From positions 3,968,001 to 4,032,000 of the forward strand of contig CBDCWI010000002.1 in assembly GCA_965223325.1 (NCBI GenBank): 64,000 nucleotides of DNA, written 5' to 3'. Source of the DNA: Candidatus Multivoradales bacterium. GTDB taxonomy: Bacteria > Acidobacteriota > Thermoanaerobaculia > Multivoradales > Multivoraceae. The position numbers and the translations under genes are program-made. Shown here in pieces: positions 15,431-43,128 of the stretch (positions within the stretch are counted from its first letter, which is position 1; each line of letters opens with the position of its first letter). Under the pieces are notes generated by a model. That model ran no database searches. It was not told the DNA's origin and was given only the letters and a program-made list of their open reading frames with translations.

Positions 15431-15501
15431 GGTGGGATTCCCGGTGGCTCGGTCAGTTGGGTCAGTGAGGAGAAAGAAGTCGAGGACGAAAGCGTTGGTC
15501 T

Positions 15502-18479: not shown

Positions 18480-18511
18480 TCGTTTGTGTAGTAGCTCAGA
18501 GGAAGAAAAAA

Positions 18512-19348: not shown

Positions 19349-19385
19349 CTGTATGATTCTAGAGACAATGAATGCAAGTTTTCAA
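19349..19385 (-). promoter_or_regulatory. sigma70-like promoter giving a probably leaderless wza transcript
   Basis: TTGAAA-18 nt-TAGAAT followed 7 nt later by the ATG; no Shine-Dalgarno. Confidence 0.5.
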
Positions 19386-19604
19386 ACGGTTTTCGGGCGG
19401 GGACAGGTGGAATCGGAGCACGAAAACAGCGTTAAACTTGTTTTATGTGTCGCGATGCCTGCGAATCGGCCGTCGAACACTAGATTTGCGAGAATCATGC
19501 CGTTTTGCAGTTCCCGCAAAACAGTGCTCTCGGGGCCGAGCGGGCCGTACAATGGCCAAACTGACACGACTCCGCTCAACCCCAATGGAGCGAGGAATCG
19601 CCCG

Positions 19605-20405: not shown

Positions 20406-20420
20406 ACGGTCGCAGGGCTC

Positions 20421-21912: not shown

Positions 21913-23352
21913 ATGACTAGAAATAATGCCAATCAGAGTTTGGGTGCCCCTCGTCGCGCCGTATCAACCACGGCTGGCCGCCGGCGGCCGCGCCTCGCGG
22001 CCTCCCCGCGGTTCCTGGCGATTCTCACTGCGGCGCTGCTGCTGTGGGCGCCGCTTCCTTTTGCAAGCGTTGCCGTCGGAGCGCGGCTTGGTTTGACCGC
22101 GGGGGTCTGGCTGCTCTTCCTGCTGGCGTTGTGGACAGTGCAGAGAAGGCGACCGAAGCCCCCTCAGACAGCCATCCTCCTGATGCTCGGTCTGGTGGCG
22201 GTCGGTGTCGTTCAGTTCGTTCCCCTTCCGGCTGGACTCGTTCGACTCCTCTCACCTCTACGTTTCCGGCTGAGCGACTCCGCAGCCGAGGTGCTGGGGC
22301 CGGTCGAGAGCTTCCTCAGTCTCAGCCTGACGCCCGGCGTGACTGTGACGGTGACGTTCTGGCTCGCGACCCTCACAGCGGCGATCTACGTGGGCGCGGT
22401 GGCTGGTCGCGAGCGAACCTATCGACGGGTGGTAGCAGCCTCCGTTGTTCTGGCTGCGGTGCTGCAAGGCCTCTACGGCGCTTCGCGGTTGTACACCGAT
22501 CCGGAGCGCATTTGGGGTCTCGAGGTGGCGGGGGCCGGCGGACGGTTGCGCGGAACCTTCGTCAATCCCGATCACCTGGCCTTCTATGTCGGCTTGAGCC
22601 TGCCGATCGTCTTTGCGTGGTGCTGGTGGGCCTTCAACCGCGCCCGCCGCTTCGGCCGACTGCCGGCATTGATCATCGGTGTCGCACCTCCGGCTCTCTT
22701 GTGGTGCGTGCTGTTCGTGTTTCTGGCACTTTCCGGTTCGCGGGGCGGTCTGGCGGCGGCCGCCCTGGCGGTCACTGTCCAGGGTGGCCTGGTTGCCCTG
22801 TCCGTTCGCCGGTGGTGGTTGGTACCCATCGGGTTGGTTGCGGCGATCGTCGGTCTGGCGGCGGTCGCGATGACCAACAGTGAAGTAGGCCTTGGGCGGG
22901 TGGCGTCGACTTCGAGCTACGAGATGCGCTGGAACAAACGCTTCGAGGTGTATGACGCCAGCCTGGGGCTCGTTCCCGAAGCACCGCTTCTCGGAACCGG
23001 TTTCGGGTCTTTTCGCGACGCCTTCCCGGTCGTCCAGCCCCAGGGTCTCGGTGGCACCTGGTGGCACGCCCACTCGGATTGGCTGGAGGTGTTGGTGACC
23101 GGTGGCCTCGTCGGCCTGGTTCTGGTGGGCCTTCTGTTTGTGACCGGGGTCAGACGGCTGCTGCGGGTATTCCAGTATGGGCGGCGCAGTGAGGATCGGG
23201 CGGCGGGTCTGGCCGGGTTGGGCTTCTCAGTCGCGGCCGGAGCGCACTCGCTCGTCGACTTCGGGTCGACGATGCCCGCAAACGCGCTGACGCTGGCCAT
23301 TCTCTTCGGACTCGCCACGTCGTGTTCGTTGTCGTTGGTGGCGGACGAATGA
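21913..23352 (+). CDS. O-antigen ligase-family membrane protein
   Basis: APLPFAS, RLRGTFVNPDH, SGSRGG, PLLGTGFGSF, HAHSDWLE. Confidence 0.85.
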   Translation: MTRNNANQSLGAPRRAVSTTAGRRRPRLAASPRFLAILTAALLLWAPLPFASVAVGARLGLTAGVWLLFLLALWTVQRRRPKPPQTAILLMLGLVAVGVVQFVPLPAGLVRLLSPLRFRLSDSAAEVLGPVESFLSLSLTPGVTVTVTFWLATLTAAIYVGAVAGRERTYRRVVAASVVLAAVLQGLYGASRLYTDPERIWGLEVAGAGGRLRGTFVNPDHLAFYVGLSLPIVFAWCWWAFNRARRFGRLPALIIGVAPPALLWCVLFVFLALSGSRGGLAAAALAVTVQGGLVALSVRRWWLVPIGLVAAIVGLAAVAMTNSEVGLGRVASTSSYEMRWNKRFEVYDASLGLVPEAPLLGTGFGSFRDAFPVVQPQGLGGTWWHAHSDWLEVLVTGGLVGLVLVGLLFVTGVRRLLRVFQYGRRSEDRAAGLAGLGFSVAAGAHSLVDFGSTMPANALTLAILFGLATSCSLSLVADE

Positions 23353-23375: not shown

Positions 23376-25022
23376 CTATTCGACTTCGATCAGACCAGGG
23401 CTGATGGTGCTGCCGGCAAGCTGGCGGATCTCAACCAGGTGCATACCCGGCTCGATGGGCTCGTCGGTTGCCATCGTGAAGCGCTTGGATTTGCGTCGCG
23501 CCGACACACCCCAGGGGCCCAGGAACCGTCCGTCGAGGAAGACCTCGACAGCACCACCCTCAGCCGACGCAGCGACTTCGAGTCGTAGGTTCGAGGCTTC
23601 GCGGGCGACGCGAATCTCATGCCGAAACAGCCTGTCGGGGAGGAGGGTCCAGCCGACAGCATCGAAGGTCATGCCGGCAGCTTTGTCGAGGGCTTCGGTG
23701 AGAGTCTCGAGAGCGCGCGTTTCGTTGCGCCTGGTGGCAACGCTCAAGCGGGCTTCGATCCATACCGGGTCGCGCCGAAACTCGCGCTCGGTCTCAGCGA
23801 GGGCGCTCGCCGCGAGGTCTGGCTCGTCACGTTCGAGATGGGCCCTGGCCTTGGCGACCCAATAGGTGTTCCAGTCGCGCTGCCAGCGGGTCTCGTGCCG
23901 GCGTTCGATTCCCTCGGCGGCAGAGAGATCGCCTGCGACCACCAGCGCCCGCGCCTCGGTCGCTGGGTCGACGCCGGTCGCCAGGCTGGCGAGTCGCTTC
24001 GTCGCCGGCCCATCGAAGACGCAGTCTCCAAACAGGCAGCGATCGAGTTGCCACTGCAGCCAGGTGAGAGCTGTACTGTGACCCGGTCCGGCCGGAATGG
24101 CCTCGACCGCGCGTGCTACGAGGCCGGCGAATCGGACGTCGGTCGGCGCTTGGAGAACGCGGACCAGACGCTCGCGACCGCGCATCGTGTCGCCACCTCG
24201 AACCCGCTGCAGCCCATCCTCGAGGCGTGATTGCGCCTCTTCGTAGTGTGCCTCGCGCCAGGCCTCGCGATTGCTCGAGAAGCGTCGCCAGTCGCCAGCG
24301 GTTGCTAGCAGGCGGCCGACCCGGTCGTGCGCGTAGACCGAGCGGGGGAGCAGCTCGAGTGCCTCGTCCATGTCGTCGTTGACCTGCAACCAGGGTCCGA
24401 TCATGCGGTCGAAGGTCGCCTGATCGAGGAGCGCGTCGTGCAGCATGGTTCGCGTCTGCTCACGCTTGTCTTCCGAAAGGACTGGCCAAACCTCGAGGTA
24501 GGCCATGGTGAGGAAGCGTTCAACTTCTCCGCCTGATGGAGCCAGCTCGAGGGCACGCTCGAGCGGAGCCTCCCACTCGCGGAAGTGGGTGATGAGTCGT
24601 TGGTCCCGTTCGATCGAGCGCTCGAGGTAGCGGGATCCTCCGAGCACCAGGGCGGCCTCCCAGGAGCTAGGGATTCCCTCGAGGGCATGGAACGCGAACT
24701 CTTGTGCTTGGCGGAGTCCGCCGACTCGACTCTCCATGAGAGCGACACGAGCATCAATGGACTCGAGCTCGGCGTACGCTCCGAGATCCAGGGCGTCGGC
24801 CAACAGCAAACGGCCAGCGGCAATCTTTGCGTGCGGGTGGTCAGCCTCGCCGGTGACGGTTCGGCGCGCCTCCGGCTGGCGGGCGAGAAGACCGAAGCCG
24901 TCGAGGGCAGCGACGACTTCGCCGCGGCCTAGACGGTTGTCGATGGAAAGCAGCAGAGTTCCAGCGAGTGCCAGGAGCGCGACCATGCCCAAGGCCAGGC
25001 GGTGCGTGAGGAGGGAGACCAT
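23376..25022 (-). CDS. Membrane-anchored helical/TPR-like hypothetical protein
   Basis: N-terminal TM anchor from ATG 25022, helical repeats, C-terminal beta domain. Confidence 0.6.
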   Translation of the reverse strand: MVSLLTHRLALGMVALLALAGTLLLSIDNRLGRGEVVAALDGFGLLARQPEARRTVTGEADHPHAKIAAGRLLLADALDLGAYAELESIDARVALMESRVGGLRQAQEFAFHALEGIPSSWEAALVLGGSRYLERSIERDQRLITHFREWEAPLERALELAPSGGEVERFLTMAYLEVWPVLSEDKREQTRTMLHDALLDQATFDRMIGPWLQVNDDMDEALELLPRSVYAHDRVGRLLATAGDWRRFSSNREAWREAHYEEAQSRLEDGLQRVRGGDTMRGRERLVRVLQAPTDVRFAGLVARAVEAIPAGPGHSTALTWLQWQLDRCLFGDCVFDGPATKRLASLATGVDPATEARALVVAGDLSAAEGIERRHETRWQRDWNTYWVAKARAHLERDEPDLAASALAETEREFRRDPVWIEARLSVATRRNETRALETLTEALDKAAGMTFDAVGWTLLPDRLFRHEIRVAREASNLRLEVAASAEGGAVEVFLDGRFLGPWGVSARRKSKRFTMATDEPIEPGMHLVEIRQLAGSTISPGLIEVE

Positions 25023-25424
25023 AGAGAGGAGTTGTAAAGTGCGCCCCAATGGGCTCTGAAGATCGGGGGCGGGGTTTGTGGCCTGGGGGCGATCAGGATG
25101 AATCGCCGCCGCGGTGGCTGCCAAGGATATCGAACCGGCCGCAGATCCGGACCCGGTTGCGGTTCTTCCCAGCATGAACCCTTTCCAAGAGGAGGCGCTG
25201 GCCGGATGGCGGCCCTCTTTGTATAGTCGCGTCGCCCCTCTCACCGAACTGGCCTCCGGGGCGGCCGCGTCTGGATTCGCGCTCACACAGCCAGACGCTC
25301 CTAGACATCAATCGACCACGTCCCCTCCCGGCCACTCTCACGCGGCACTGCTCGCCGCCCTAAGCAAGCGGACCGGAGACCTAGCGAGTTCTCCACAGGT
25401 CCCGCTCCATTGGAGACAACTCTC

Positions 25425-27149
25425 ATGACCGATTCCCTCATCGCGCCTCACGGCGGCGATCTCAAAGAACTCATCGCGCTACCTGAACGCCAGGCGGAGC
25501 TCAAGGAGGCGTCTCGCGAGTGGCCGTCCTGGGACCTGACGGCGCGTCAGGCGTGTGACCTGGAACTGTTGTTGTGTGGTGGCTTCTCGCCGCTCGATGG
25601 GTTCATGAACCAGGCCGACTTCAACGCGGTCTGTGACTCGATGCGCCTGGCCGACGGCACCCTGTGGCCGATGCCAATCACCCTGGATGTCACCGAAGAC
25701 GTCGCCGAGCAGCTTTCTTCTGGCTCGCAACTCGCGTTGCGCGACGACGAAGGCGTGATGGTGGCCTGTCTGAACGTCGACGACATCTGGGAGCACGACC
25801 GCGAGAAAGATGCCGAGAGCGTCTACGGTTCACTCGATCGTGCACACCCTGGTGTGGCCCACCTGTTCGAGCGCACCAACAACATTTCGGTGGGGGGCAT
25901 GCTCGAAGGTCTGCAGCTGCCGTCGCACTACGACTTTCCCAAGCTCCGCATGACGCCGGCCCGCCTGCGGCGTGAGTTCGAGCGTCTGGGCTGGCGCAAT
26001 GCGGTTGCCTTTCAGACTCGCAATCCGATGCATCGCGCGCACTACGAGCTCACCCTGCGGGCCGCACGGGACTTGGAGACCAACCTCTTGATCCATCCAG
26101 TCGTCGGCATGACAAAGCCCGGCGACCTCGACCACTACACGCGTGTTCGCTGCTACCAGCGGCTGATGGACAACTTCCCGGCCCACACCGCGATGCTCTC
26201 GCTCTTGCCCCTCGCCATGCGGATGGCAGGTCCCCGCGAGGCGGTCTGGCACGCGATCATCCGCAAGAACTACGGCGCAACGCACTTCATCGTCGGCCGT
26301 GACCATGCCGGCCCCGGCAACGATTCCAAGGGCAACCCCTTCTATGGTCCGTACGATGCCCAGGAACTCCTGAGCAAGCACGAAGAAGAGCTCGGAATCT
26401 CGATGGTGCCGTTCAAGATGATGGTCTATGTCGAACGGCGCGGCTCATATGAACCCCTCGATGAGGTCGAGGAGGGAACCCGGACCTTGTCGATCTCGGG
26501 TACCGACCTCCGACGCCGCCTGGCAGAGGGTCTCGAGATTCCCGAGTGGTTCACCTTTCCCGAAGTTGCCGAGGAGTTGCGTCGGACGCATCCGCCGCGC
26601 AGCGAACAGGGGTTCACGGTCTTCTTCACCGGATTGTCGGGTTCCGGAAAGTCAACGATCGCCAACGCCTTGATGGTCAAATTGCTCGAGGCGGGTGGGC
26701 GTCCGGTCACGCTTCTCGATGGCGATTTGGTGCGCAAGAACCTGTCCTCTGAACTGGGCTTTTCCAAAGAACACCGTGACATCAACATCCGTCGCATCGG
26801 TTGGGTGGCTTCGGAGATCACCAAGAACGGCGGCATTGCGATCTGTGCGCCGATCGCGCCTTACCGCAACGTACGGCTCGAGGTTCGCGAAGAGATTGAA
26901 CCGCTCGGTGGTTTCGCACTCGTGCACGTGGCGACTTCACTCGAAGTCTGTGAACAGCGAGATCGCAAGGGGCTCTACGCCAAGGCACGCGCCGGCATCA
27001 TCAAGGAGTTCACTGGCATCTCTGATCCCTACGAAGAGCCGGAGAACGCTGAGTTGGTCATCGACACCGCGGACTGCACTCCTGAGCAAGCCGCCCAGCA
27101 GATCATCCTGCACCTCGAGAGTGAGGGGTACATCGGAGCGCGCGCCTGA
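25425..27149 (+). CDS. sat: Bifunctional sulfate adenylyltransferase/APS kinase (Sat-CysC, PAPS synthesis)
   Basis: GGFSPL.GFM, FQTRNPMHRAH, VGRDHAG, FTGLSGSGKST, RDRKGLY, FTGISDPYE; GGAG RBS before ATG 25425. Confidence 0.95.
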   Translation: MTDSLIAPHGGDLKELIALPERQAELKEASREWPSWDLTARQACDLELLLCGGFSPLDGFMNQADFNAVCDSMRLADGTLWPMPITLDVTEDVAEQLSSGSQLALRDDEGVMVACLNVDDIWEHDREKDAESVYGSLDRAHPGVAHLFERTNNISVGGMLEGLQLPSHYDFPKLRMTPARLRREFERLGWRNAVAFQTRNPMHRAHYELTLRAARDLETNLLIHPVVGMTKPGDLDHYTRVRCYQRLMDNFPAHTAMLSLLPLAMRMAGPREAVWHAIIRKNYGATHFIVGRDHAGPGNDSKGNPFYGPYDAQELLSKHEEELGISMVPFKMMVYVERRGSYEPLDEVEEGTRTLSISGTDLRRRLAEGLEIPEWFTFPEVAEELRRTHPPRSEQGFTVFFTGLSGSGKSTIANALMVKLLEAGGRPVTLLDGDLVRKNLSSELGFSKEHRDINIRRIGWVASEITKNGGIAICAPIAPYRNVRLEVREEIEPLGGFALVHVATSLEVCEQRDRKGLYAKARAGIIKEFTGISDPYEEPENAELVIDTADCTPEQAAQQIILHLESEGYIGARA

Positions 27150-27709: not shown

Positions 27710-29143
27710 ATGGCGAGGAAGAAGAGGGGCCGCAAGCCGGCGCGCACCGGAAAGTCCAGCCGGTCCGGTCGGCGCCGGCACCAGATGCCCGATTCGCACC
27801 GTGAAGGAGGCGGCTCCGCGATGGTGGGGCACACCGCGACCGCCGCATTGATTGCCACCGTCGTCATCCCGCCCCTGGTTCTCCTTCCGAGCCTGCACGA
27901 ACCGTTTCATTTGCCCAAGCTGCTCGCGAGCGAAGCGCTGGCGCTGGTTTCGATTGCTTTGGTTCTGTGGTCTCACCGTCGCGGGACGCTACCGGTTCCC
28001 AAGCACTGGTTCTCGGTACCCGCTGTACGCGTTGTTCTTCCGCTGTTCGTCGCTGCTCTCGTTTCTCTCCTGTTCACTGACCATCCGGCGCACACCCAGG
28101 AGGGAACCTGGTCCTTGGCTGTTGGGTGTGCTGCTCTGGTTGCCTGGGCAGTGGGGGTGCCGCGGCTGTCGCGCGTCTTCTACTTCTTGCTTCCGGTCGC
28201 GGCGCTGCTCGCGGTCGTTGGCATCCTGCAGACCTACGGGCGCGTGCCGACCTGGGGCGCGAGCGGTGGTGCGGATCGTCTCGGTGTGACCTCGCTCGCC
28301 GGAAGCGTCGGAGACTTCGCCGCCTACCTCGTTCTGCCGACTGTCCTGGCGCAATACTTCATCTGGCGAGGCTTTCTGCGCGCCGAACGTACGGCCAAAG
28401 AGCGTTGGTTGGGCGGCTTCGCTGTGATCGCTCTCGGGTGTGTCTTGTGGGCGGCCGTCGTCAGCCAGACTCTCGCTGCACTGGCCGCGCTGGCCATCGC
28501 GAGCCTCGCGCTCTGGGCCTTCCTTCTGCCGCCGCGGCGAGCCCTCTTGGTAACGGCGGTTGCCGTAACGGTCCTCGCTTCGGCCGTTCTCCTTGCCGAG
28601 CCCACCCGCGACCGCCTGATCGCCAAGACCGGTTCGGTTGCCGCCGGGCGCGTCGATCGGGTGCTTTCCGGACGTCTAGATGGCTGGAAGGCGGGCGCCT
28701 TCATGTTTTCGCAGCGGCCGGCAACGGGCGTCGGCCACGGTGCCTACGGTGCCTCGTTCGGAGGGGCCAAGCTCGGCCTGCATGAACGCGGCATCGAGCT
28801 GTACGACGGGCATCGCTTTCCCATCTTCGGCAATGCCCACAACGAGGTCATCGAAGTGGGCGCCGAGCTAGGCGTCCTTGGCCTCGGGGCTCTCGCCTGG
28901 GCGTTGTGGATCTTGCTGAAACGGGTACGCCGTCGCGTGAGGCTCGATCGGAGTGATCCGTCGAACGACGGGTATGGAGCCCTGGCCCTCGCCGGGCTTC
29001 TCGCCCTGGTCGTCTTGGGGAGCGCCTACTTTCCGTTTCGCATTGCACTGACCGCCTATCCGGCGATCCTGTTTCTGGGTTGGGTGTTGAGTCGGGATTT
29101 CCTGGACGAGGACGGCGCGACACAGGCGGAAGGTGCCCTCTGA
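27710..29143 (+). CDS. O-antigen ligase-family membrane protein
   Basis: EPFHLPK, multiple TM helices, R...W...M...P..GVG.G, NAHNEVIE..AELG. Confidence 0.8.
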   Translation: MARKKRGRKPARTGKSSRSGRRRHQMPDSHREGGGSAMVGHTATAALIATVVIPPLVLLPSLHEPFHLPKLLASEALALVSIALVLWSHRRGTLPVPKHWFSVPAVRVVLPLFVAALVSLLFTDHPAHTQEGTWSLAVGCAALVAWAVGVPRLSRVFYFLLPVAALLAVVGILQTYGRVPTWGASGGADRLGVTSLAGSVGDFAAYLVLPTVLAQYFIWRGFLRAERTAKERWLGGFAVIALGCVLWAAVVSQTLAALAALAIASLALWAFLLPPRRALLVTAVAVTVLASAVLLAEPTRDRLIAKTGSVAAGRVDRVLSGRLDGWKAGAFMFSQRPATGVGHGAYGASFGGAKLGLHERGIELYDGHRFPIFGNAHNEVIEVGAELGVLGLGALAWALWILLKRVRRRVRLDRSDPSNDGYGALALAGLLALVVLGSAYFPFRIALTAYPAILFLGWVLSRDFLDEDGATQAEGAL

Positions 29144-29676
29144 TGGCGAGCTCATCGAAGCCAGTGGCTGAGGGCGCCCGGGAGAGCATTCCGGCACGTT
29201 GGGTGGTGCTGCCGCTTTTGGTCGTGGTGTTGCTGGCCATCGCCCACGAGTGGCAGCGTGGTCGGGCACGCCTTACGGCGAGCCGTGCTTTGTCTGGTCT
29301 CGAATCTTCGGTTGCCCGTTCGCTCGCCACCGGCGGCGCCGCCGAGGCACAGTTGCAAGCCGGGGTTCAACTGCTGCGCAAGCTCGACGAGGAGAAGCTC
29401 GACCCGTCTGAGGTCGGTATTCCGATGGCTCTGGGAAGTCACTACCTGTTGCTCGAGTCACCTGACGCCGCGATTCGCTGGTACGAGACGGCATTGGCTC
29501 TCGAGACTCGACCCGAGATCCTGATCAACCTGGCGCGTGCCCATCGAATGGCGGGCAACGAGGAGCAGGCGCTGCTCTATCTCGAGCAGGCGCAGGTGCT
29601 CGACCCGTTGCGCTATTCGGCGAGTGCTACTGACGATGGTAGAACGCGGCGACGCAAGAAGAGGTCGGGCCGTTGA
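29143..29676 (+). CDS. Membrane-anchored TPR protein
   Basis: ATG 29143 overlaps the upstream TGA; one TM helix; two TPRs (A..WYE.AL, NLA.A...G..EQA). Confidence 0.7.
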   Translation: MASSSKPVAEGARESIPARWVVLPLLVVVLLAIAHEWQRGRARLTASRALSGLESSVARSLATGGAAEAQLQAGVQLLRKLDEEKLDPSEVGIPMALGSHYLLLESPDAAIRWYETALALETRPEILINLARAHRMAGNEEQALLYLEQAQVLDPLRYSASATDDGRTRRRKKRSGR

Positions 29677-30203
29677 GTCTGGAAGGCAACGGCGACAACT
29701 CCGCCACTGCGACATGGTTGCAAGCCGGCGCGGTTGAAGATTGCGGCCGCCGGCTCGCTCTGCTCGAGATGGCGCAGGATCTCGGTCAGCTCGAGTTGCT
29801 GGTTCGCGGTGACTGCATGGTGCCCCTGATCGTTGAGGGTGACAGGTTGGTGGTGGAACAAGAGAAGCGGTACTGGCCGGGAGACGTCGTTGCCTTCTTT
29901 GCGCACGACGGTCGTTTTCTGGTGCATCGGGTGATCGGCTATCGGCCGGTTGGCGGTCGACTGGGAGTCGTGACCGCTGCCGACCGCGCGCCCGGATGGG
30001 ACGATCCAGTGCCGGTGGGTGGGGTGCTCGGTCGTGTCGCGTCGATCAGCCGAGACGGTGAGCCCGCTGCGCTCGAGGTGTCACTGTCGAGGCGTGTCCT
30101 GGCCGCTTCGACTTTCGTTTCGGTCGCTGTGAGCCGTACTCTGAGGCGGCTCTTTCCATCGTCGGATGCAAAGGTGGGCTCTGACATTGAGGGTCAGCGA
30201 TGA
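29673..30203 (+). CDS. S24/S26 peptidase-like protein with a Cys at the catalytic position
   Basis: VRGDCMVPLI.EGD (cf. GxSMxP), GDVVAF, LVHRVI. Confidence 0.7.
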   Translation: MSLEGNGDNSATATWLQAGAVEDCGRRLALLEMAQDLGQLELLVRGDCMVPLIVEGDRLVVEQEKRYWPGDVVAFFAHDGRFLVHRVIGYRPVGGRLGVVTAADRAPGWDDPVPVGGVLGRVASISRDGEPAALEVSLSRRVLAASTFVSVAVSRTLRRLFPSSDAKVGSDIEGQR

Positions 30204-31147
30204 CGTTTGGTGAGCGCTTGCTGGTCAGTCCAGAGCTCTTTCCGGCCCGTGCGGCCGGGGAGCGCTGGGGAACTGAAGCGCTCTGGATCGACTTTGCGGG
30301 TGGCCCCTACTGCTTTCTGGGCCTGGCAGCGGATCAGTGCTCGGTGTTGCGCGAGCACTTCGGGGAGTTGGTCATTGGCGGCGCGCCTCCCGGGCAGGTC
30401 GATCATCTGCACGTCGATGTCTTTCGTGTCGAAGCAACAGACTGGCGCTCTTTCGACCTGGCGGGCTGGGAGTATGAAATGGATTTCGACTACTCCGAAC
30501 ACAGCGTTCGGCTGGTCGGCCTCGGTTTCATGGGGCGTCTCGAGTGGCGAAGGCCCGATACCCTTCGAGGCGCACTCTTCGTCGCCAGCAGGACCGCCGA
30601 GCCGCTGACCGGGGCCTTCGAGAACTTCTTTCGGGTCCTGGTGGCCTATCGCCTCCTGGCGCTCGGAGGGTTGCTCATCCACTCCGCCGGTGTAGTTCTA
30701 GGCGATGCGGTCCATCTGTTTCTGGGGCGCTCGGGAACTGGCAAGACGACCCTGTCCCGGCTGGCGCTCGACGCTGGGTTGTGCGTTCTCTCTGACGATG
30801 TCAATGCCGTCGTGCCTGACGAGCGGGGTCGTTTCGTGGCCGAGAAGCTCCCCTTCGCCGGCGAGCTCGGCCCCTCGGTCACCAGCAGCGATGCCTATCC
30901 GTTGGCGGGGGTCTGGCAGTTGGCGCAGGGAGAAGCACACGCCGTGCGCTCCGTCTCACCGTCACGAGCAGTGGCCAGCCTGCTGGTCTCGGCGCCGTTC
31001 ATCAACGCTGATCCTCATCGACAAGACCGACTGTTCGAGGTGGCGACCGCGATCGCTCACCAGGTTCCCAACGGCCACCTCGACTTTGCGCGCCAACCAG
31101 GCGTGTTCGCCCTCCTCAACAGTAAGAACCCGGAGCCTTCCGTATGA
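30200..31147 (+). CDS. HPr kinase-related P-loop kinase (ScmC/PadeK-like)
   Basis: LIHSAGV, GRSGTGKTT Walker A, LSDD, PFAGE. Confidence 0.8.
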   Translation: MTFGERLLVSPELFPARAAGERWGTEALWIDFAGGPYCFLGLAADQCSVLREHFGELVIGGAPPGQVDHLHVDVFRVEATDWRSFDLAGWEYEMDFDYSEHSVRLVGLGFMGRLEWRRPDTLRGALFVASRTAEPLTGAFENFFRVLVAYRLLALGGLLIHSAGVVLGDAVHLFLGRSGTGKTTLSRLALDAGLCVLSDDVNAVVPDERGRFVAEKLPFAGELGPSVTSSDAYPLAGVWQLAQGEAHAVRSVSPSRAVASLLVSAPFINADPHRQDRLFEVATAIAHQVPNGHLDFARQPGVFALLNSKNPEPSV

Positions 31148-31425
31148 CCGAGATCAAGAAACTCCACCGCGCAGGCGACGTGCGCTTTCGCGCCGTCGGT
31201 GGCGAGACCGTGGTCTTGCGGCAGAACGACGCTTTGGTACTGGTCCTCAACGAAGTCGGCGGCCGCGTGCTCGAGCTTGCCGACGGTCGGACCGAAAGTG
31301 AGATCGTCGACGAATTGATTGACGAATTCGAAGTCGAGCGCGCCGAACTCGAGGCCGACGTGAGTGCGTTCGTGACCGAGTTGATTGGAGAGGGCGTTGT
31401 CGTCGCCCAGGAGTCGCTCAGCTAG
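31144..31425 (+). CDS. PqqD-family RiPP recognition element (stand-alone RRE)
   Basis: 93 aa; VRFR.VGGE.VVL, LNEVG..V.EL.DG, I...L..EFEV....L..DV..F...L...G. Confidence 0.9.
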   Translation: MTEIKKLHRAGDVRFRAVGGETVVLRQNDALVLVLNEVGGRVLELADGRTESEIVDELIDEFEVERAELEADVSAFVTELIGEGVVVAQESLS

Positions 31426-32587
31426 CTAGGACTTTGAGTCGGCGGCGCGGGGTCGCGACTTTCTTCGGCCCGCTTCCGAGAGCGTGACCCTCCCTGTCGG
31501 TCGAGGGGGCGATCGGCTCGCCAGACTGAGCAGCCGCTTTGAGCTCGCCGCGCTTCTTCGCCGCGGCGTGAACTTCGAGCGGGTCGCCGGTACGACTTTC
31601 GGCTGCGCCCGGGCAGAACGACATCAGGTTCGCGTTGGGGCCAGACCTTTCGACTCTGACCAGAACTTCGCGGTTGAGATCGCGCAGGTCTCGAACCGGC
31701 TCGGCCTGCCAGATCTCGCGCAATGAGCTCTCCCTCAGGTTGCCTATGGAGCGTCGCCACTGTACACACGGGTAGACGTTGCCGAAGGGATCGATCGCCA
31801 GAGTCGAGGAGCCGGCGCCGCAGAAGCGAGTCCGCGGTGGTGGTTTCTGGGTGGACCTTGCGGGACTCTCCGTTGAGGGGCGTTGGGCCTGCTCTGCCCG
31901 CTCGCGGTCACGTGCAGCAGCGATGCGTTCGGCCTGGATCCGGAAGAGGCGTGCGACCGCCGCATCGGAGGCGCTGATGGCGAGCGGCTCGTCGTCACCA
32001 TCGTCACGAACGGTGACCTCGGGATCGATCTGCAGGGCGACACCGAGTCGATCGGCGATTGCGTACATGCCTTCGATCTGGTCTTCGTTCCAACGCGTGA
32101 GGGTCGAGTTGATCTTGAGACGCATGCCGCGGCCTTTGATCTCCTCGAGATTCTCGAGGAGGCGTTCGAAGCTGCCGGCGACCTGGGTCTGTTGGTCGTG
32201 GGTCGAGGCGCAGTCACCATGAAGGCTGACTTCGATCAGAAACGGGTCGACCTCGGAGTGGAGACGTTCGAGCATCGCGCCGCGCAGAGCATGGCCGTTC
32301 GACTTCACCCGCACCGCGAAGCCGCGCTCCCGGGCGTACGCACCGATCGTGAAAAAGTCCGGGTGAGCCAGTGGCTCCCCTCCCGAGAGAATCAGGTTGA
32401 GCGCCCCCATTTCGGCCAACGCATCGATCGTCTGGAGCCAGTCCGGGGTCTCGAGGGGCTGGCCCACCAACGACAGGTCGTTGTAGCAGAACCAGCAGTC
32501 GAGGTTGCAGCGGTAGGTGAGCTCGAAGAGGGCAGTAAACAGCCGCTCCTCTTCCCACAGGCGGGCGGCGATTTCGCGAAAGGCCAG
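31418..32587 (-). CDS. Radical SAM peptide maturase with Twitch/SPASM-like C-terminus
   Basis: ELTYRCNLDCWFCY, SGGEP, SNG, CGAG..TLAIDPFGNVYPC...IGNL, FCPG. Start placed at CTG 32587 behind an AAGGA RBS. Confidence 0.88.
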   Translation of the reverse strand: MAFREIAARLWEEERLFTALFELTYRCNLDCWFCYNDLSLVGQPLETPDWLQTIDALAEMGALNLILSGGEPLAHPDFFTIGAYARERGFAVRVKSNGHALRGAMLERLHSEVDPFLIEVSLHGDCASTHDQQTQVAGSFERLLENLEEIKGRGMRLKINSTLTRWNEDQIEGMYAIADRLGVALQIDPEVTVRDDGDDEPLAISASDAAVARLFRIQAERIAAARDRERAEQAQRPSTESPARSTQKPPPRTRFCGAGSSTLAIDPFGNVYPCVQWRRSIGNLRESSLREIWQAEPVRDLRDLNREVLVRVERSGPNANLMSFCPGAAESRTGDPLEVHAAAKKRGELKAAAQSGEPIAPSTDREGHALGSGPKKVATPRRRLKVLAS

Positions 32588-32652
32588 GGTGGAAGTCCTT
32601 CGGGAGTGGGGAGGGCGGGGAACCGCTTGGAGGGGTCGACGACCCTTAGGAC

Positions 32653-32823
32653 CTAGGAAGAAATCGGGCCGCCAGGGCAGCTGCCGTAGTCGGCTTTGCC
32701 GGGGCCTGAGCACACCGCGGCGACGACTTCGAGCGCCTCGCGCGACAGGATTACCGGGCGCTGGTAGCGTCGCCGGTCCTGCTTGGGGTCCTTCGCTTTG
32801 GGCTTTGGAACGGGCTTCTTCAT
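32653..32823 (-). CDS. Putative RiPP precursor peptide, 56 aa (absent from the ORF track)
   Basis: Hand translation: MKKPVPKPKAKDPKQDRRRYQRPVILSREALEVVAAVCSGPGKADYGSCPGGPISS*. GGAAG RBS 7 nt upstream; YxxPxI leader motif; directly upstream of the rSAM gene. Confidence 0.85.
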   Translation of the reverse strand: MKKPVPKPKAKDPKQDRRRYQRPVILSREALEVVAAVCSGPGKADYGSCPGGPISS

Positions 32824-32871
32824 GAGGTGACTTCCATCTACGCGGGAGGCGAGACCCTCCCGAGCCCAAAA

Positions 32872-32900
32872 ATCGTATCAAAACTATTATTTCTACTCAA
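32872..32900 (-). promoter_or_regulatory. sigma70-like promoter of the precursor-rSAM unit
   Basis: TTGAGT (32900-32895)-17 nt-TACGAT (32877-32872); 5'UTR hairpin CGGGAGG/CCTCCCG at 32843-32862. Confidence 0.65.
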
Positions 32901-32905
32901 GCTGG

Positions 32906-34330
32906 TCAGGTGCCCGGGCTGGTCAGGATGATCTTGATCGTTCGCAGCAGGATGGAGAGGTCCAACCAGAGGCTCCAGTTGGCCAGGTAGGCGAGGTCGT
33001 AGCGCAGTTTGTTACGGGCGCTCGAGTGGTAGTTGCCATTGACCTGCGCTAGGCCGGTCAGCCCTGGGGGCATCGCGAAGCGCTCGATGTAGCCGGGAAT
33101 CTCGTCGATGAACTGAGCGACGAAGCTCGGGCGCTCGGGCCGTGGACCCACCAGGCTCATCTCTCCCCGCAACACGTTGAGGAGCTGCGGGACCTCATCA
33201 AAGCGGCTGCGGCGCAGGAAGCGGCCCACCGGAGTGATACGGGGGTCTTCGGGACTGGCGAGGACGGCGCCGGTGCTGGATTCGGCGTCCACCACCATGG
33301 TGCGCAGCTTGAGCAACTCGAAGGGCTGTCGATCACGGCCGAGCCGCTTCTGGCGAAAAATCACCGGGCCTGGCGAGCTCCAACGCACTGCGATCGCCGC
33401 GACGATCATGAAGGGAATCGACAGGAAGAGCGCCAACGAAGCAACCACGACGTCGAAGGCACGTTTGAAGGGAAGGCTTGCGCGCCACTCCGAGGCCCGC
33501 ATGACCTCGATCAGCGCCATGTCGTGGACCGAGCGGAAGCGAGTGCGACCGATCAGGCTCTCGAAGGGACTGGGCAGGAGCAAGACGGTGCCTCGCTGAC
33601 TGGGCTGGCGCGCCATGCGGTCGATCAGACGCGTTTGCCAGTCGTCGGGTGAGGCGGCCATCACGATCATGTCGATGGTTCCGTCGTCGATGAGATCTGG
33701 CAGGTCCGCCACGCTGCCCAGGTGTGGTCCGAGCGTTTCCCTGGGGTGCCAGGTATCCCTTTCCCCGCCACGCGCGCGACGGCCTTCCTCGGGAATCGCC
33801 ACGTGCCCTCCGATGCGGAGTCCATGCCAGTGGTACCTCTCGATGTGCAGTGCCAGCTCCCGCGCCGCGTCGGAGGTGCCGATGATGGCGACCTTGCGCC
33901 ACTCGGTGGGTTGCAACTGCATGAGCAGCAGGCGAAACAGAAACAGCACGACCAGGTGAATAGGCCAGAACAGCACCAGCACCGATCGTGGAAAGGTGAG
34001 CTGAGACAAGAAGTAGAAGGCCATCAAGAGAAGCGTCTGAATGCTGACGACTGCCAACAGGCGGTTGAGAACCTCGAGGCGAGGTCTCGGGCGTCCGCCG
34101 TCGTAGAAACCAAACAACCACAGGAGCAGGTTCTGCGTGATCACGACCAGCAGCGAGGCGGTGCCGAAGAAGATCAGTCGCTCCTGCGGCAACAGCGCCT
34201 GAGTCAGTGGAATGGGCAGCGTAATGCGGACCAGAAACGCCAGGTAGAGCGACAAGAGCCCCACTGCAACATCGCCCGAGGCGCGCACGAGGCGAAAAAG
34301 CAGCCGAAGTTGGTTTGTTGCGGAATCCAT
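32906..34330 (-). CDS. Polyprenyl glycosylphosphotransferase (WcaJ/WbaP-like priming transferase)
   Basis: Four N-terminal TM helices, KRAFD, KLRTM, DPRITPVG.FLR..RFDEVPQL.NV..GEMSLVGPRPER, PGLTGLAQV, WSLWLD. Confidence 0.92.
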   Translation of the reverse strand: MDSATNQLRLLFRLVRASGDVAVGLLSLYLAFLVRITLPIPLTQALLPQERLIFFGTASLLVVITQNLLLWLFGFYDGGRPRPRLEVLNRLLAVVSIQTLLLMAFYFLSQLTFPRSVLVLFWPIHLVVLFLFRLLLMQLQPTEWRKVAIIGTSDAARELALHIERYHWHGLRIGGHVAIPEEGRRARGGERDTWHPRETLGPHLGSVADLPDLIDDGTIDMIVMAASPDDWQTRLIDRMARQPSQRGTVLLLPSPFESLIGRTRFRSVHDMALIEVMRASEWRASLPFKRAFDVVVASLALFLSIPFMIVAAIAVRWSSPGPVIFRQKRLGRDRQPFELLKLRTMVVDAESSTGAVLASPEDPRITPVGRFLRRSRFDEVPQLLNVLRGEMSLVGPRPERPSFVAQFIDEIPGYIERFAMPPGLTGLAQVNGNYHSSARNKLRYDLAYLANWSLWLDLSILLRTIKIILTSPGT

Positions 34331-40000: not shown

Positions 40001-41539
40001 TCAGGGTGACGGCGGATTGAGCCGACGGTCGAACTCTGGCGGCGCGCGTTCGAACGAGGCACGATGATGCGCTACCGTGCTCTCGATCGCGGCCACCACT
40101 TCGGGGTGTTCGGCGGCAACGTCGAAGCGCTCCTCCGGATCGCGGTGGAGGTCGTAGAGAAGCGGAGGGTCGTGCTCGGCGCGCGCCGGGGGCGCGCCAT
40201 AGGCGCCTTCGGTGACGAAGTGCAGCTTGAACCGCCCCTGCCGCCAAGCGCGTAGTTCGCCGCTGCGGTAATACGCGATTCCCTCGTCTGATGCGGGTTC
40301 TCGGTCCCTTAGAAGGGGCATCAGATCTGTTCCGTCGAGGCTGATCTCCTCCGGTGCCGGAACGCCGGCCAGCGCCAGGGCGGTGGGGAAGATATCGAGG
40401 GTGCTCCTGGGTACGCTCGACACCCCAGGCGCGATCACACCCGGCCACCAGAAGATCGCCGGCACTCGCATGCCACCCTCGAAGGTCTCGCCTTTGCCGC
40501 CGCGCAAGAGTCCGGCGCTGCCGCCGTGCTGGTTGAGGGTGCGCCAGGGCCCGTTGTCGCTGGTGAAGACCACCAGCGTGTTCTCGGCCAATCCACCTTG
40601 GCGAAGCGCTTGGGCGATTCGGCCGACGTTGGCGTCGAGCTCTTCAATGACGTCGCCGTAGAGGCCCGCGAGGCTCTGGCCCTCGAAGTCGGCGCTCCGG
40701 AACAGGGGCACGTGCGGCATGGTGTAAGGAACGTAGAGCAGAAACGGTCGCGAGTCGGCCTGGCGTTGTTTCAGAAACTGGAGCGCGCGATCCGTGTAGC
40801 GCTCGGTCAAGGTGGTCTGGTCGGCGGGTCGCTCGACGGTTCGATCTTCGAACGTATCGCCGGTGCGGCGGCTTTCAAAGAGCGGTACGTTCCAGAAGTC
40901 GACCTCAGGTGCGAAGTAGGCAGCACGCTTCTTTGCCCGGTCGGCGGCGAGGTCTTCGGTGCGCCCGCTAGCGACCGCTCGCAGGGTCTCTGGAAAGTCC
41001 ATGCCGACTTCCCAGTCCATGTCGTTCGAGTAGGGCAGACCGAGCCATTCATCGAAACCATGGCGGGTCGGCCACGCCTCGGGGCGGTCGCCGAGGTGCC
41101 ATTTACCAAAAACCGCCGTCGCGTAGCCAGCGTCGCGGAGCACCTCGGCGAGAGTCAGCTCGCGTTCCGGCAGACCTCCGGGGTCGTCCGGAAAATACAC
41201 CCCGATGCGTTCGCCGTAGAGTCCCGTGCGCACCGGCAGGCGGCCGGTGAGGAGGGCACCGCGACTCGGTGAACACACCGGCGCGGCGACGTAGAAGTCG
41301 GTCATGCGCAGACCTTCACGTGCCATCTGGTCGAGGTGGGGTGTGCGGATCGTTGGGTGACCGAAACTGCCAAGGTCGCCGTAACCGAGATCGTCGGCAA
41401 ACAGGATCACGATGTTGGGGGGTGTCGGGCTTTCGTTCGCCCCCTGTTCGGCGACGCTCTGTGGGTCGCATGCCGCCAGAAGAAGTGCGCCCCAAGCGAG
41501 CACGGCGAGTCTGATCCCCGTTGCTCCGGGCCCTTTCAT
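40001..41539 (-). CDS. Arylsulfatase (formylglycine-dependent), probable lipoprotein
   Basis: LLAAC lipobox, PNIV..FADDLGYGD, CSPSRGALLTG, GKWHLG, SDNG. Start reassigned to ATG 41539. Confidence 0.92.
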   Translation of the reverse strand: MKGPGATGIRLAVLAWGALLLAACDPQSVAEQGANESPTPPNIVILFADDLGYGDLGSFGHPTIRTPHLDQMAREGLRMTDFYVAAPVCSPSRGALLTGRLPVRTGLYGERIGVYFPDDPGGLPERELTLAEVLRDAGYATAVFGKWHLGDRPEAWPTRHGFDEWLGLPYSNDMDWEVGMDFPETLRAVASGRTEDLAADRAKKRAAYFAPEVDFWNVPLFESRRTGDTFEDRTVERPADQTTLTERYTDRALQFLKQRQADSRPFLLYVPYTMPHVPLFRSADFEGQSLAGLYGDVIEELDANVGRIAQALRQGGLAENTLVVFTSDNGPWRTLNQHGGSAGLLRGGKGETFEGGMRVPAIFWWPGVIAPGVSSVPRSTLDIFPTALALAGVPAPEEISLDGTDLMPLLRDREPASDEGIAYYRSGELRAWRQGRFKLHFVTEGAYGAPPARAEHDPPLLYDLHRDPEERFDVAAEHPEVVAAIESTVAHHRASFERAPPEFDRRLNPPSP

Positions 41540-41543
41540 CGCC

Positions 41544-43128
41544 CTAGTCCTGTGGCTGATCGAAGCGTGGAACAAGCGTCGCCCCCGTATCGTCGATGCG
41601 TTCCTGAAGAGCCGTCCACATCGAGTTGAAGAGCGAACGCAGTTCTTCATCGTCGGTGCCTTCTCCGAACAGATCGAGCAACACCGGAACGCGCAGTCTG
41701 GGCCCCAGCACCCGTGAATCAATGTTGCCGATCCCGGCTCGGGTGCGATAGTCCGCGATGAGGTTGTGGCGTTCCTCCGGGTCCCGTGCGAGGTCGTAGA
41801 GCTCCCAGCCATCCCAGACGCCGTGCGTGACGATGAGTTTGTGCGTGTCGGTACGGAGCGCGAAGGTGGTGGGGGTTTGAGGGAACGCCCACTCCCAGAA
41901 GTACTCGTAGAGAAACGAAGAGCGCCACGGCGGCCGTCCCTCGGGTGCGGCCTCGAGCAGTGGAACGAAAGACCGCCCGTCGATTGCCTCAGGCTGTACG
42001 GTACCGGCCATGTCGATGAAGGTGGGTGCGAAGTCAATGTTGAGCACCATTTCTGGTCGTCGGGTGGGTTCGGTGCCCGGAACCCGAACGATCAGCGGCA
42101 CGCGAATCGACGCCTCGTAGGCGGTCCGTTTGTCGATCAGGCCGTGTTCGCCGAACTGAAACCCGTTGTCTGACGTGAAGACGACGACCGTGCGTTGGTC
42201 GAGGCCCAGCCTTCCAAGCGCTTCGAGTAGCCGTCCCGTCGAGTCGTCGACGGCGCGCAGGGCCTCGGCGTAGTCGCGCGTAAAGGTACCCATATCGCTC
42301 GTGCGGTTGTACATGCCGTCGACGCCGTGCCAGCTCATGCGTTGTGCGCGCACCCAATCGGGTTTGCCACGGTAGTTCTCGTCGTTGTCTGCCATCGACT
42401 CGGGAAATGGATACGCACGGTCTTTGTAGCTTCCGGCATGGCGGGTTGCGGGTTGAAAGGGTGAATGCACCGCCTTGTGAGACAGGTAGAGCAGGAAGGG
42501 CTGCTTCTTTTGTGCGGCACTCTCGAGGAACTCGATTGCATGATCGGTCAGCCGGTCGGTGATGTAGCCGTCACCGGCGACCCGCTTGCCATCGATGTTG
42601 AAAGCCTGATCGACATAGGTTCCCTGGCCGGGGAACGATACCCATCGGTTCCAGCCCGGCCGCGGTGAGTCGTTCTCGCCGCCCATGTGCCACTTGCCGA
42701 TGAAGGCCGTGTCGTAGCCTGCGGCTTGCAGCGCAGTTCCGAATGTTGGTAGCTCGGGCTCGAGCGGTACTCGGTTGGCCAGCACGCCGTGTTTGTGCGC
42801 CAGTTGACCGGTGAGGATCGAGGCGCGGCTCGGAGAGCACAGTGAGGTGGTCACGAAAGCGTTCTCGAAGACGACGCTCTCGCTGGCGAGGCGGTCGAGG
42901 TGGGGTGTTTCAAAGAACGTGTTGCCGAGCGCGCGCGCGCCATCGAAGCGTTGATCATCGGTGAGGATGAAAACGATCGACGGACGATCGAGCGTGGTCT
43001 CGGCCTGGGCAGGACTGCTCAGTCCATGCGAAGACCAGGAAGATCGAAAGCGTCAGGCAAAGGAGCGTTCGGCGTTTGCAGGCGGCTGTTCCCAGCGGCA
43101 CGCTGGTTCTGGCTCTCGGAGATGGCAT
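41544..43128 (-). pseudogene. Sulfatase (N-acetylglucosamine-6-sulfatase-like) with a frameshift in the signal-peptide region
   Basis: The catalytic frame extends upstream of 42854 (AQAETTLDRPSIVFILTDDQRFD...CSPSRASILTG), but the signal peptide from ATG 43128 is in another frame; shift near 43026. Confidence 0.7.

Follow-up and report, generated by a model that had tools for sequence, protein, structure and literature searches.

A predicted precursor peptide gene that accompanies a radical-SAM enzyme, a PqqD protein, a kinase-like protein and a peptidase in Thermoanaerobaculia

Among peptides that are made on the ribosome and then modified post-translationally (RiPPs), the linear polyphosphorylated peptides (LPPs) of Bacillota appear to be made by the pathway closest to the one discussed here, which centres on a 56-codon open reading frame (ORF) in 64,000 nucleotides of DNA from a Candidatus Multivoradales bacterium (Acidobacteriota, Thermoanaerobaculia; contig CBDCWI010000002.1); this whole stretch is referred to as the window. 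In their published description (PMC13381572, Nat Commun 2026), LPP clusters encode the archaeal-type signal peptidase LppS with the catalytic residues S29, H68 and D93, the RiPP recognition element (RRE) LppB, the HprK-like kinase LppK, a nucleoside triphosphate (NTP) transferase as well as an MsbA-like pump. LPP leaders are reported there to begin with Y-x-x-P-x-V-L, the tyrosine lying at position -16; LppB presents the leader, LppS cuts after position -1 and LppK polyphosphorylates Ser3 of the core (PMC13381572). A second point of comparison comes from paeninodin and pseudomycoidin, for which the available account describes phosphorylation of the C-terminal serine by HprK-family kinases and the subsequent addition of a hexose onto the phosphate (PMC6993621).

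The ORF in the window lies on the minus strand at 32653..32823, with its ATG at 32823 and its TAG at 32655-32653, and encodes MKKPVPKPKAKDPKQDRRRYQRPVILSREALEVVAAVCSGPGKADYGSCPGGPISS. A sequence-only reading of the same DNA had proposed it as a hidden RRE-dependent precursor peptide beneath a spurious extension of a radical S-adenosylmethionine (rSAM) enzyme, and it is indeed present there, nested in another frame within a 487-aa ORF that runs from a TTG (31418..32881) and of which the last 390 residues make up the rSAM enzyme. Following up this proposal by computation, we arrive at a probability of roughly 0.75 that the 56-codon ORF is an expressed gene for a RiPP precursor, belonging to a pathway conserved in Thermoanaerobaculia. 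The gene co-occurs with those for the rSAM enzyme, a discrete PqqD protein, a kinase-like protein and a peptidase. By analogy, its closest published kin would be the LPP-like pathway of signal peptidase, RRE and kinase, here with an added radical-SAM step and fixed in a polysaccharide locus of Thermoanaerobaculia.

Likeness to LppS, LppB and LppK was judged from the published description rather than by direct sequence comparison. Measured against it, both systems have a discrete PqqD-type RRE, and both have an archaeal/Sec11-type signal-peptidase-like enzyme as established or predicted leader peptidase, C48/H85/D110 of the window protein standing against S29/H68/D93 of LppS with a His-to-Asp spacing of 25 in each case. 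The HprK-like kinase may have its counterpart in a window protein with a PEPCK-like (phosphoenolpyruvate carboxykinase-like) fold and a sub-cut-off ScmC match. Moreover, the two leaders share Y-x-x-P-x-[V/I]-L, where placing Y20 of the window peptide in the LPP -16 register puts the predicted cleavage after Ala35, and both clusters are embedded in a polysaccharide locus. The differences are equally clear. The window system has an rSAM enzyme, whereas radical SAM, SPASM and Acidobacteria are all absent from the text of the LPP paper; its core is short and almost invariant, with two cysteines, one lysine and a terminal serine, in contrast to the variable cores described for LPPs; and the nucleophile position of the peptidase is Cys in 50 of 65 orthologues, as opposed to Ser29 of LppS. 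A Pfam scan of 20 window ORFs (6970-34330, a few smaller ORFs being left out) revealed neither an NTP transferase nor an MsbA-like pump of the kind listed for LPPs, and the phyla differ, Acidobacteriota here and Bacillota there. We found no description of this acidobacterial system in the literature; the supplement of PMC13381572 might list signal-peptidase clusters from outside Bacillota.

With paeninodin and pseudomycoidin, as far as their published account goes, the locus shares a Y/WxxP leader with a discrete RRE, a kinase-family gene and a precursor ending in Ser. A lasso peptide was nevertheless rejected as the product. The conserved cluster in the window includes neither a macrolactam synthetase (C protein) nor a B2 cysteine peptidase, the sole Asn-synthase-like ORF lying 18 kb away in a polysaccharide locus; positions 7-9 of the core lack a conserved acidic residue, the first acidic residue of the window peptide's core being at core position 10, where 105 of 120 relatives have Asn; and the window system has a leader peptidase of another family as well as an rSAM enzyme. 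Similarity to the pyrroloquinoline quinone (PQQ) pathway extends to a small precursor, a separate PqqD chaperone and PqqE as the closest solved relative of the rSAM enzyme (1.3e-22). It ends at the PqqE model score (88.2 vs a cut-off of 381.35), at a C-terminal part with only three conserved cysteines, short of the full SPASM set, at a core without Glu-x3-Tyr and at the lack of other pqq genes among the ORFs seen. Membership in the PqqE or MftC equivalog was rejected because scores fell below the cut-offs and companion genes were missing among the ORFs scanned.

SynChlorMet (SCM) and GeoRSP systems are cassettes of an rSAM/SPASM protein with PqqD. They supplied the best curated matches for two of the window proteins, namely ScmC for the kinase-like protein (5.2e-5) and the GeoRSP PqqD (5e-12) and ScmD (4.6e-4) models for the PqqD protein. 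However, the scores lie well below the curated cut-offs (22.7 vs 125 and 46.2 vs 100), so the window proteins are not members of those equivalogs, and the precursor matches no model. With the maturases of sactipeptides and ranthipeptides (StsB, PapB, AlbA, SkfB and CteB), the locus has in common an auxiliary-cluster rSAM enzyme, a Cys-containing core and an RRE, and SkfB and CteB are among the solved relatives; by contrast, the RRE of the window is a separate protein, and the maturase scores are far below the family cut-offs.

Conservation of the peptide and its linkage to the radical-SAM enzyme

The mere existence of a 56-codon ORF is within chance expectation in GC-rich DNA, the 14 kb between 26000 and 40000 containing 118 ORFs of at least 40 aa; the conservation of the translated frame goes far beyond what chance would give. 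When 61 related genomes were searched in six frames with the peptide as query, matches down to E 6e-12 were obtained, from which 19 orthologous peptides of 53-64 aa were recovered in 14 genomes, all with a start codon and most with a purine-rich stretch upstream. Whereas the first ~16 residues vary among these orthologues, Y20, P23, E29, E32, A35, C38, K43, C49 and the C-terminal S56 are invariant in 19 of 19, and G52 is nearly so. Codon-level constraint, on which the sequence-only reading had staked its proposal, was found in every comparison: in Nei-Gojobori counts over the conserved part of the peptide, the proportion of nonsynonymous differences (pN) was lower than that of synonymous differences (pS) in each of the 171 pairs, the means being 0.348 vs 0.675. 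Differences were most frequent at third codon positions (0.589, compared to 0.393 at first and 0.315 at second positions). Because pN is below pS in all pairs, the peptide frame is under purifying selection, and the ORF is a real gene.

A profile search of a large protein collection extended the family to 264 proteins at E <=1e-3, all of them unnamed or called 'hypothetical protein', none with a Pfam domain, and with Thermoanaerobaculia as the few taxon labels present. The exact 56-aa window protein is already in this collection, which means that some gene caller has predicted it before. In the best 120 database relatives, P23, L31, E32, A35, C38, K43, C49, G52, P53, I54 and S56 occur in 120 of 120, and position 20 is Tyr in 107 and Trp in 13. 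The positions singled out from the window alone (Y20, P23, C38, K43, C49 and the terminal Ser) are thus fixed throughout the orthologues and the relatives, apart from the exchange of Tyr for Trp. Two more specific suggestions of the sequence-only reading fared less well. Tyr46 had been put forward as an aromatic crosslink site, which we reject, since this position is Tyr in only one of the 120 relatives and Pro in 105. Asp45 had been named as a crosslink acceptor; of the 120 relatives, 105 have Asn at this position and 9 have Asp, and Ser or Thr is found in some genomes. An acceptor role is possible and would not be specific to Asp.

The peptide itself matches no Pfam or NCBIfam model, and its profile gave only a chance-level match to solved structures (E 1.7). 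Its nearest clusters in the Protein Atlas are all unnamed, the nearest named ones being the weak matches DUF5972 (0.81) and Subterisin (0.77). A second copy was not found in its own genome, where the next best match had E 0.1. The N-terminus is hydrophilic, rich in Lys and Pro and without a signal peptide, and the C-terminal part consists of a C-x10-C loop followed by 7 residues ending in Ser. Residues 1-35 (32823-32719) form the predicted leader and residues 36-56 (32718-32656) the predicted core.

Upstream of the ATG, at a distance of 7 nt, stands the Shine-Dalgarno-like GGAAG (32835-32831, minus strand) that had been noted as a ribosome-binding site, a putative role; purine-rich stretches also precede the orthologue starts. 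The other regulatory elements proposed from the window proved less convincing. The promoter-like hexamers TTGAGT (32900-32895) and TACGAT (32877-32872) exist on the minus strand (32872..32900), 17 nt apart in an AT-rich spacer that follows right after the stop of a glycosylphosphotransferase gene (SugT); they match 8 of 12 consensus positions, which is not above chance, and a promoter scan with a threshold of 9/12 called no promoter there. Likewise, a 7-bp stem-loop in the 5' untranslated region (32862-32843) and a 5-bp GGGTC/GACCC stem-loop located after the stop codon of the peptide and before the start of rSAM (32645-32633) are both present on the minus strand. The 52-nt stretch bearing the former folds at -20.9 kcal/mol, with z scores for the hairpin folds of -1.59 (this stretch), -1.07 and -0.57 (the GGGTC/GACCC hairpin), all within the range of shuffled sequences. 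Promoter and hairpins were accordingly dropped as support for the gene.

Linkage to the rSAM enzyme was assessed in the same 61 genomes, using E <=1e-40 as the threshold for an rSAM orthologue. Such an orthologue exists in 16 of them and is accompanied by the peptide in 15, with E <=1e-3 in 13, 0.00101 in one and a diverged member in the last (G060). The peptide of G060 reaches only E 0.03 with the single query, adjoins the rSAM gene and matches the family profile at 6e-10. Its leader, K-x5-C and terminal Ser-Ser are retained, while the rest of its core has diverged. In the sixteenth genome 225 nt separate the rSAM gene from the end of the contig, and the remaining sequence yielded no peptide. 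Conversely, none of the 45 genomes without rSAM orthologue contains the peptide at E <=1e-3, and the weaker matches in these genomes have internal stop codons or are Arg/Pro-rich stretches within long frames.

A broader sample was obtained by scanning a collection of species-representative genomes with the rSAM alignment. The best 80 of 401 confirmed loci were used, many of them cut by contig ends and nearly all labelled as Thermoanaerobaculia, Acidobacteriota or Holophagales metagenome-assembled genomes. The peptide profile identified 67 peptides in 65 of these loci. In 55 loci the peptide gene is convergent with rSAM and within 500 bp of its 3' end, in 4 it is convergent and farther off, in another 4 it lies downstream on the same strand, in one it is upstream and far away, and in one it overlaps the end of the rSAM match on the opposite strand. 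In the loci where no peptide was found, fewer than 600 bp of contig remained beyond rSAM in 6 cases, and the contig went on in 9. Among the other genes, the PqqD protein was present in 76 of the 80 loci, the kinase-like protein in 72 and the signal-peptidase-like protease in 65. The features of an RRE-dependent precursor, that is, a real small gene with a Y/WxxP leader and linked PqqD and rSAM genes, are therefore borne out beyond the window.

The window departs from the common arrangement. On its minus strand the order is polyprenyl glycosylphosphotransferase, peptide, rSAM, and five plus-strand genes converge on them. A peptide gene directly upstream of rSAM on the same strand was seen only here and in one other genome (G037, locus L039), and in none of the 80 loci. 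In both genomes, the rSAM gene appears to have been inverted out of the PqqD operon, which would explain its present position downstream of the peptide. The inverted rSAM gene of G037 has a normal ATG start.

These comparisons also bear on the rSAM reading frame. In 12 of 13 relatives the rSAM gene starts with ATG, GTG or TTG 25-30 residues before the CxxxCxxC motif, while for the thirteenth the sole candidates are a CTG in that place and a GTG several codons later. M-A-F-R-D-I of the sister genome aligns with L(CTG)-A-F-R-E-I of the window, and GAAGGA stands 8 nt 5' of this CTG at 32587. No ATG, GTG or TTG occurs in the rSAM frame from GTG 32713, which lies inside the peptide gene, to CxxxCxxC, and the 98 codons upstream of CTG 32587 have no counterpart in any relative. 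Based on these alignments, the rSAM gene probably starts at CTG 32587, giving a protein of 389 aa (31418..32587, minus strand). We judge the N-terminal extension over the peptide to be spurious, as had been suspected from the window, because relatives start shortly before the motif and the peptide is mostly encoded on the other strand.

Predicted actions of the associated proteins on the peptide

In the pathway we propose, the discrete PqqD protein would bind the leader through Y20-x-x-P23-x-I-L, as in lasso and LPP pathways. This 93-aa PqqD-family RRE is encoded at 31144..31425 on the plus strand (Pfam PqqD 2.6e-15). Its best solved relative is the lasso leader-binding RRE TbiB1 (2.8e-12), followed by other lasso or PqqD-family RREs, and the corresponding leader element Y/W-x-x-P-x-[ILV] is invariant in the peptide family. 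Structure prediction of the PqqD protein together with the peptide gave a score of 0.55 vs 0.01 for the best of 3 controls, a weak result that may reflect likeness to solved RRE-leader complexes; runs agreed in at least 88% of contacts, and the predicted local distance difference test (pLDDT) value of the partner was at least 55. Of 80 solved complexes, 58 reach the pass mark applied, as do 2 of 110 mismatched pairs, and passes at <=0.60 comprise only 7 of the 80 solved complexes plus both passing mismatches, so that a pass in this range is more often wrong than right unless the pairing was likely beforehand. Taking the RRE relationships and the invariant element into account, we consider binding of the leader via Y/W-x-x-P probable.

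Leader removal would fall to a soluble signal-peptidase-like protease (clan SF, archaeal/Sec11-type) encoded at 29673..30203 on the plus strand, which is predicted to cut after the invariant Ala35 and to release a 21-residue core. The protein matches Peptidase_S24 at 1.5e-5 and sigpep_I_arch at 3e-8, the latter with 33.7 bits vs a cut-off of 51.85, and no membrane segment was seen in it. A profile of 41 sequences matches S. aureus SpsB (1.8e-4), human SEC11A (3.1e-4) and LexA (0.02), and the structural model (pLDDT 84.9) resembles the C-domains of LexA, UmuD and lambda repressor as well as SEC11A/C, SipA and SpsB, that is, the clan SF fold. His85, Asp104 and Asp110 are invariant. The nucleophile position within G-x-C-M-x-P, Cys48 in the window, is Ser in 13 of the 65 orthologues from the rSAM loci that mostly have Cys. 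A Cys/His/Asp version of the Sec11-type fold seems to be absent from the description of the LPP system, whose enzyme uses Ser29 (PMC13381572).

In the peptides, Ala precedes x-x-C in 64 of 64 sequences that fit the strict pattern, and residue -3 among these is Ala in 48, Leu in 6, Thr in 5, Ile in 2 and Phe, Gly or Val in one each. Cleavage between Ala35 and Ala36 is predicted because small residues at -1 and -3 are typical of clan SF peptidases and because the LPP Tyr(-16) register, as published, points to the same bond. Removal of the leader after Ala35 by the signal-peptidase-like enzyme is thus probable, and it agrees with the core start near A35-C38 that had been suggested from the window.

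The third protein of this set, 315 aa in length, is encoded at 30200..31147 on the plus strand and appears to be related to ScmC/HprK P-loop kinases, its only curated match being NCBIfam ScmC (5.2e-5, below cut-off). The model (pLDDT 86.9) has a PEPCK-type P-loop and fold, and the top 50 Foldseek matches are PEPCKs rather than HprK/P, with E values from 8.8e-7 and template modelling scores of 0.4-0.5. As a lead only, its nearest Atlas clusters, mostly from Acidobacteriota, are named 'HprK-related kinase A' or 'ScmC' and carry Pfam ScmC. A true HprK was rejected in view of these PEPCK matches and the unmatched Hpr_kinase_C domain, and for the same reasons we name the protein ScmC/HprK-related only. 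It would phosphorylate a serine of the peptide. By analogy with paeninodin and pseudomycoidin, the best candidate is the invariant Ser56; a C-terminal Ser is found in 67 of 67 peptides from the 65 rSAM loci. Phosphorylation of a serine by the kinase-like protein, most likely of Ser56, is moderately supported by this analogy, and the phosphate or the serine may then carry a sugar from the surrounding polysaccharide machinery.

Finally, the rSAM enzyme (Pfam Radical_SAM 7.4e-18, SPASM 3.5e-11) may modify the conserved Cys38...Lys43...Cys49 loop. In 9 orthologues the invariant cysteines are C27, C31 and C34 of CxxxCxxC and, beyond these, only C256, C274 and C325. The seven-Cys SPASM motif is absent, no CxxCx5Cx3C block being found in the 9 sequences, and the Pfam SPASM match spans positions 1-54 of 67. 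The C-terminal domain is therefore probably reduced and twitch-like, binding one auxiliary cluster. Against solved structures, the rSAM profile matched PqqE best, followed by BlsE, SkfB (5.5e-15), CteB (8.4e-10) and BtrN. The most likely product of such a single-auxiliary-cluster enzyme would be a peptide whose cysteines form one crosslink or two within the molecule, such as a link from Cys49 to residue 45, which lies four residues before Cys49 and is Asn, Asp, Ser or Thr throughout. These are the kinds of acceptor known for non-alpha thioethers. Crosslinks from Cys38 and/or Cys49 within the loop are what we favour, and only tentatively so.

Polysaccharide context and rival explanations

Several observations weigh against the pathway as proposed. 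The peptide gene and the only rSAM orthologue are found on separate contigs in 5 genomes. Residues 17-56 are conserved throughout, which is atypical for antibiotic-type RiPPs. With respect to the kinase-like protein, Pfam Hpr_kinase_C was matched in 0 of 9 orthologues, and a PEPCK-like fold alone is shown; with cleavage after Ala35, core position 3 is moreover the invariant Cys38 and not a phosphorylated serine like Ser3 of the described LPPs, so that the LPP analogy is silent on the phosphate site. The best curated matches of the rSAM enzyme, AhbD, NirJ, MftC, StsB and PqqE, are all far below their cut-offs, as seen from the NCBIfam scores for MftC (101 vs 265) and StsB (100 vs 625) and also for PapB (62 vs 340) and AlbA (58 vs 850), in addition to the PqqE value given above. 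PqqE, its nearest solved relative, forms a C-C bond rather than a thioether. Furthermore, no dedicated exporter or ATP-binding cassette (ABC) pump was found among the 20 scanned ORFs, in line with the missing NTP transferase, and the nearest neighbour of the peptide in 7 of 14 loci is a C25-domain protein, hinting at another partner.

The genes around the peptide are largely concerned with polysaccharides. The gene immediately upstream of that for the peptide, in the same orientation, encodes the polyprenyl glycosylphosphotransferase SugT, a priming sugar transferase (32906..34330; TIGR03025, 388 bits vs a cut-off of 295.55). The co-directional plus-strand array begins with a membrane protein of the Wzy_C family of O-antigen ligases and O-oligosaccharyltransferases (27710..29143, Pfam Wzy_C 1.6e-13), followed in the same operon by a tetratricopeptide repeat (TPR) protein (29080..29676). 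The conserved flank further includes a second Wzy_C protein (21913-23352, plus strand), a 636-aa protein between the two Wzy_C genes that has no Pfam or NCBIfam match (23376-25286, minus strand) and an ATP sulfurylase/adenosine 5'-phosphosulfate (APS) kinase (25410-27149, plus strand). Beyond it lies a Wzx/Wzy-type exopolysaccharide locus (6970-21734) with a GT2 glycosyltransferase, a third Wzy_C protein, two GT4 glycosyltransferases, the Asn-synthase-like protein, a CpsB phosphatase, a Wzc-like tyrosine kinase and a Wza-like exporter; its ORFs 14063-15430 and 20421-21734 gave no Pfam match. Two adjacent sulfatase-like ORFs, read from their translations only, are found at 40001-42854 on the minus strand, a few kb away from the gene for ATP sulfurylase/APS kinase.

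Across the rSAM loci the canonical order is Wzy1, the unknown protein on the opposite strand, Wzy2, TPR, peptidase, kinase-like protein, PqqD and rSAM, facing SugT, a C25-domain protein and the peptide, the last three standing in this order in relatives of the window. Of the 80 loci, 41 contain the TPR protein and 41 Wzy2; the unknown 636-aa protein was present in 32, Wzy1 in 26, SugT in 21 and CysNC, the ATP sulfurylase/APS kinase, in 5.

This setting raises the question of whether the main function of the peptide is to accept a glycan by en-bloc O-glycosylation. A Wzy_C oligosaccharyltransferase (Wzy1 or Wzy2) would then move a SugT-primed lipid-linked glycan onto the C-terminal serine, and Cys38 and Cys49 would form a disulfide loop. 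Wzy_C proteins of 477-479 aa do belong to the same conserved array, Wzy2 in about half of the loci, and SugT is directly upstream of the peptide operon. As far as the published account shows, TfpO and TfpM are Wzy_C-domain proteins of 420-470 aa that glycosylate a C-terminal Ser or Thr of pilins, located after their disulfide loop, and for TfpO the second disulfide Cys has to stand at a minimum distance from the C-terminus (PMC9829042); the layout of the peptide, a C-x10-C loop and 7 residues ending in Ser, fits this scheme. However, Wzy_C transferases are periplasmic, yet the peptide has a hydrophilic N-terminus without signal peptide, and the scanned ORFs offer no exporter. The Wzy_C proteins could also be plain polymerases or ligases of the neighbouring exopolysaccharide locus, and neither the rSAM enzyme nor the kinase would be given a role. 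We regard glycosylation as the chief function of the peptide as unlikely. It can coexist with a RiPP pathway, from which it differs only on the fate of Ser56 and of the cysteines.

A different partner is suggested by the C25-domain proteins. These are secreted proteins of ~1400-1580 aa with signal-peptide-like N-termini and a C-terminal Peptidase_C25 (gingipain-family) domain, and where they adjoin the peptide they are usually encoded immediately upstream on the same strand. Three genomes carry two or three tandem copies of the C25-peptide pair beside one rSAM/PqqD/kinase set, and C25 adjoins the peptide in four further loci, among them that of G037; C25 genes occur in 43 of the 80 rSAM loci. 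The peptide might thus be a dedicated small subunit, inhibitor or substrate of the C25 proteins, matured by the rSAM set. QhpC is a small crosslinked subunit matured by an rSAM enzyme and offers a parallel. By contrast, no C25 gene adjoins the peptide in the window or in the sister genome, the C25 proteins have signal-peptide-like N-termini and the peptide none, and the peptide is single-copy in its own genome, where the C25 genes lie elsewhere. In this genome, outside the window, we observed 8 Peptidase_C25 matches, 6 in frames of 3755-4573 aa and 2 in frames of ~1360 aa, none beside the peptide. A role as dedicated partner of C25 proteins is, in our estimate, distinctly unlikely.

Elements of both proposals could be combined with the RiPP pathway in a peptide-glycan conjugate. 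The crosslinked 21-residue peptide, phosphorylated on Ser56 by the ScmC-like kinase, would be attached through this serine to a lipid-linked polysaccharide by the Wzy_C proteins of the operon, serve as primer, cap or anchor of the exopolysaccharide and be processed or transferred by the secreted C25 (gingipain/PorU-family) proteins encoded next to it. We put this forward as a speculation with a low chance of being correct.

The peptide could, alternatively, be consumed in making a small conserved cofactor or signal, of which few residues survive, as for PqqA in PQQ and MftA in mycofactocin synthesis. PqqE as the best solved relative of the rSAM enzyme, the presence of MftC and PqqE among its best NCBIfam matches, and a separate PqqD partner as in the PQQ and mycofactocin pathways are all in keeping with this idea, and a core that is almost invariant across 120 sequences is what one fixed product would be expected to show. 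On the other hand, the MftC and PqqE scores are far below their cut-offs, and no PqqB-, PqqC- or MftD/E/F-like partner was found among the ORFs scanned. The leader peptidase, the kinase and the glycan genes better fit a decorated peptide, and there are loci with two or three copies of the peptide, each of them paired with a C25 protein. A cofactor precursor is hence very improbable. Lastly, although ORFs of this length abound in the region and the rSAM frame has no conventional start between 32713 and CxxxCxxC, we give almost no credence to the ORF being a chance open frame or part of a longer rSAM protein starting at TTG 32881 or GTG 32713, as pN is below pS in every pair, relatives start near the motif with the sister ATG aligned to the window CTG, and a peptide encoded opposite rSAM in 55 of 80 loci cannot belong to the rSAM protein.

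Significance for Thermoanaerobaculia

The proposed RiPP pathway defines a conserved locus of 10 genes in Thermoanaerobaculia, a soil lineage that is abundant and has hardly been cultured, and brings together a large precursor family that had no name, its 264 database proteins being without a Pfam or NCBIfam model. It would extend the logic of signal peptidase, RRE and HprK-type kinase, published in 2026 for LPPs only, beyond Bacillota, adding to it an rSAM step and a cysteine at the nucleophile position of the peptidase. At the level of annotation, the rSAM gene is corrected to the probable CTG start, without the long N-terminal extension, and Y20, P23, A35, C38, K43, C49 and S56 of the peptide are offered as residues for experiment.

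Compared to a reading of the peptide by itself, the kinase-like protein, the protease, the polysaccharide context and the C25 partner alter the likely meaning of the terminal serine. In sum, the fixed core, the fixed terminal Ser and the constant association with polysaccharide genes suggest that the product has a physiological role, in the envelope, the matrix or in signalling, rather than being a variable antibiotic.

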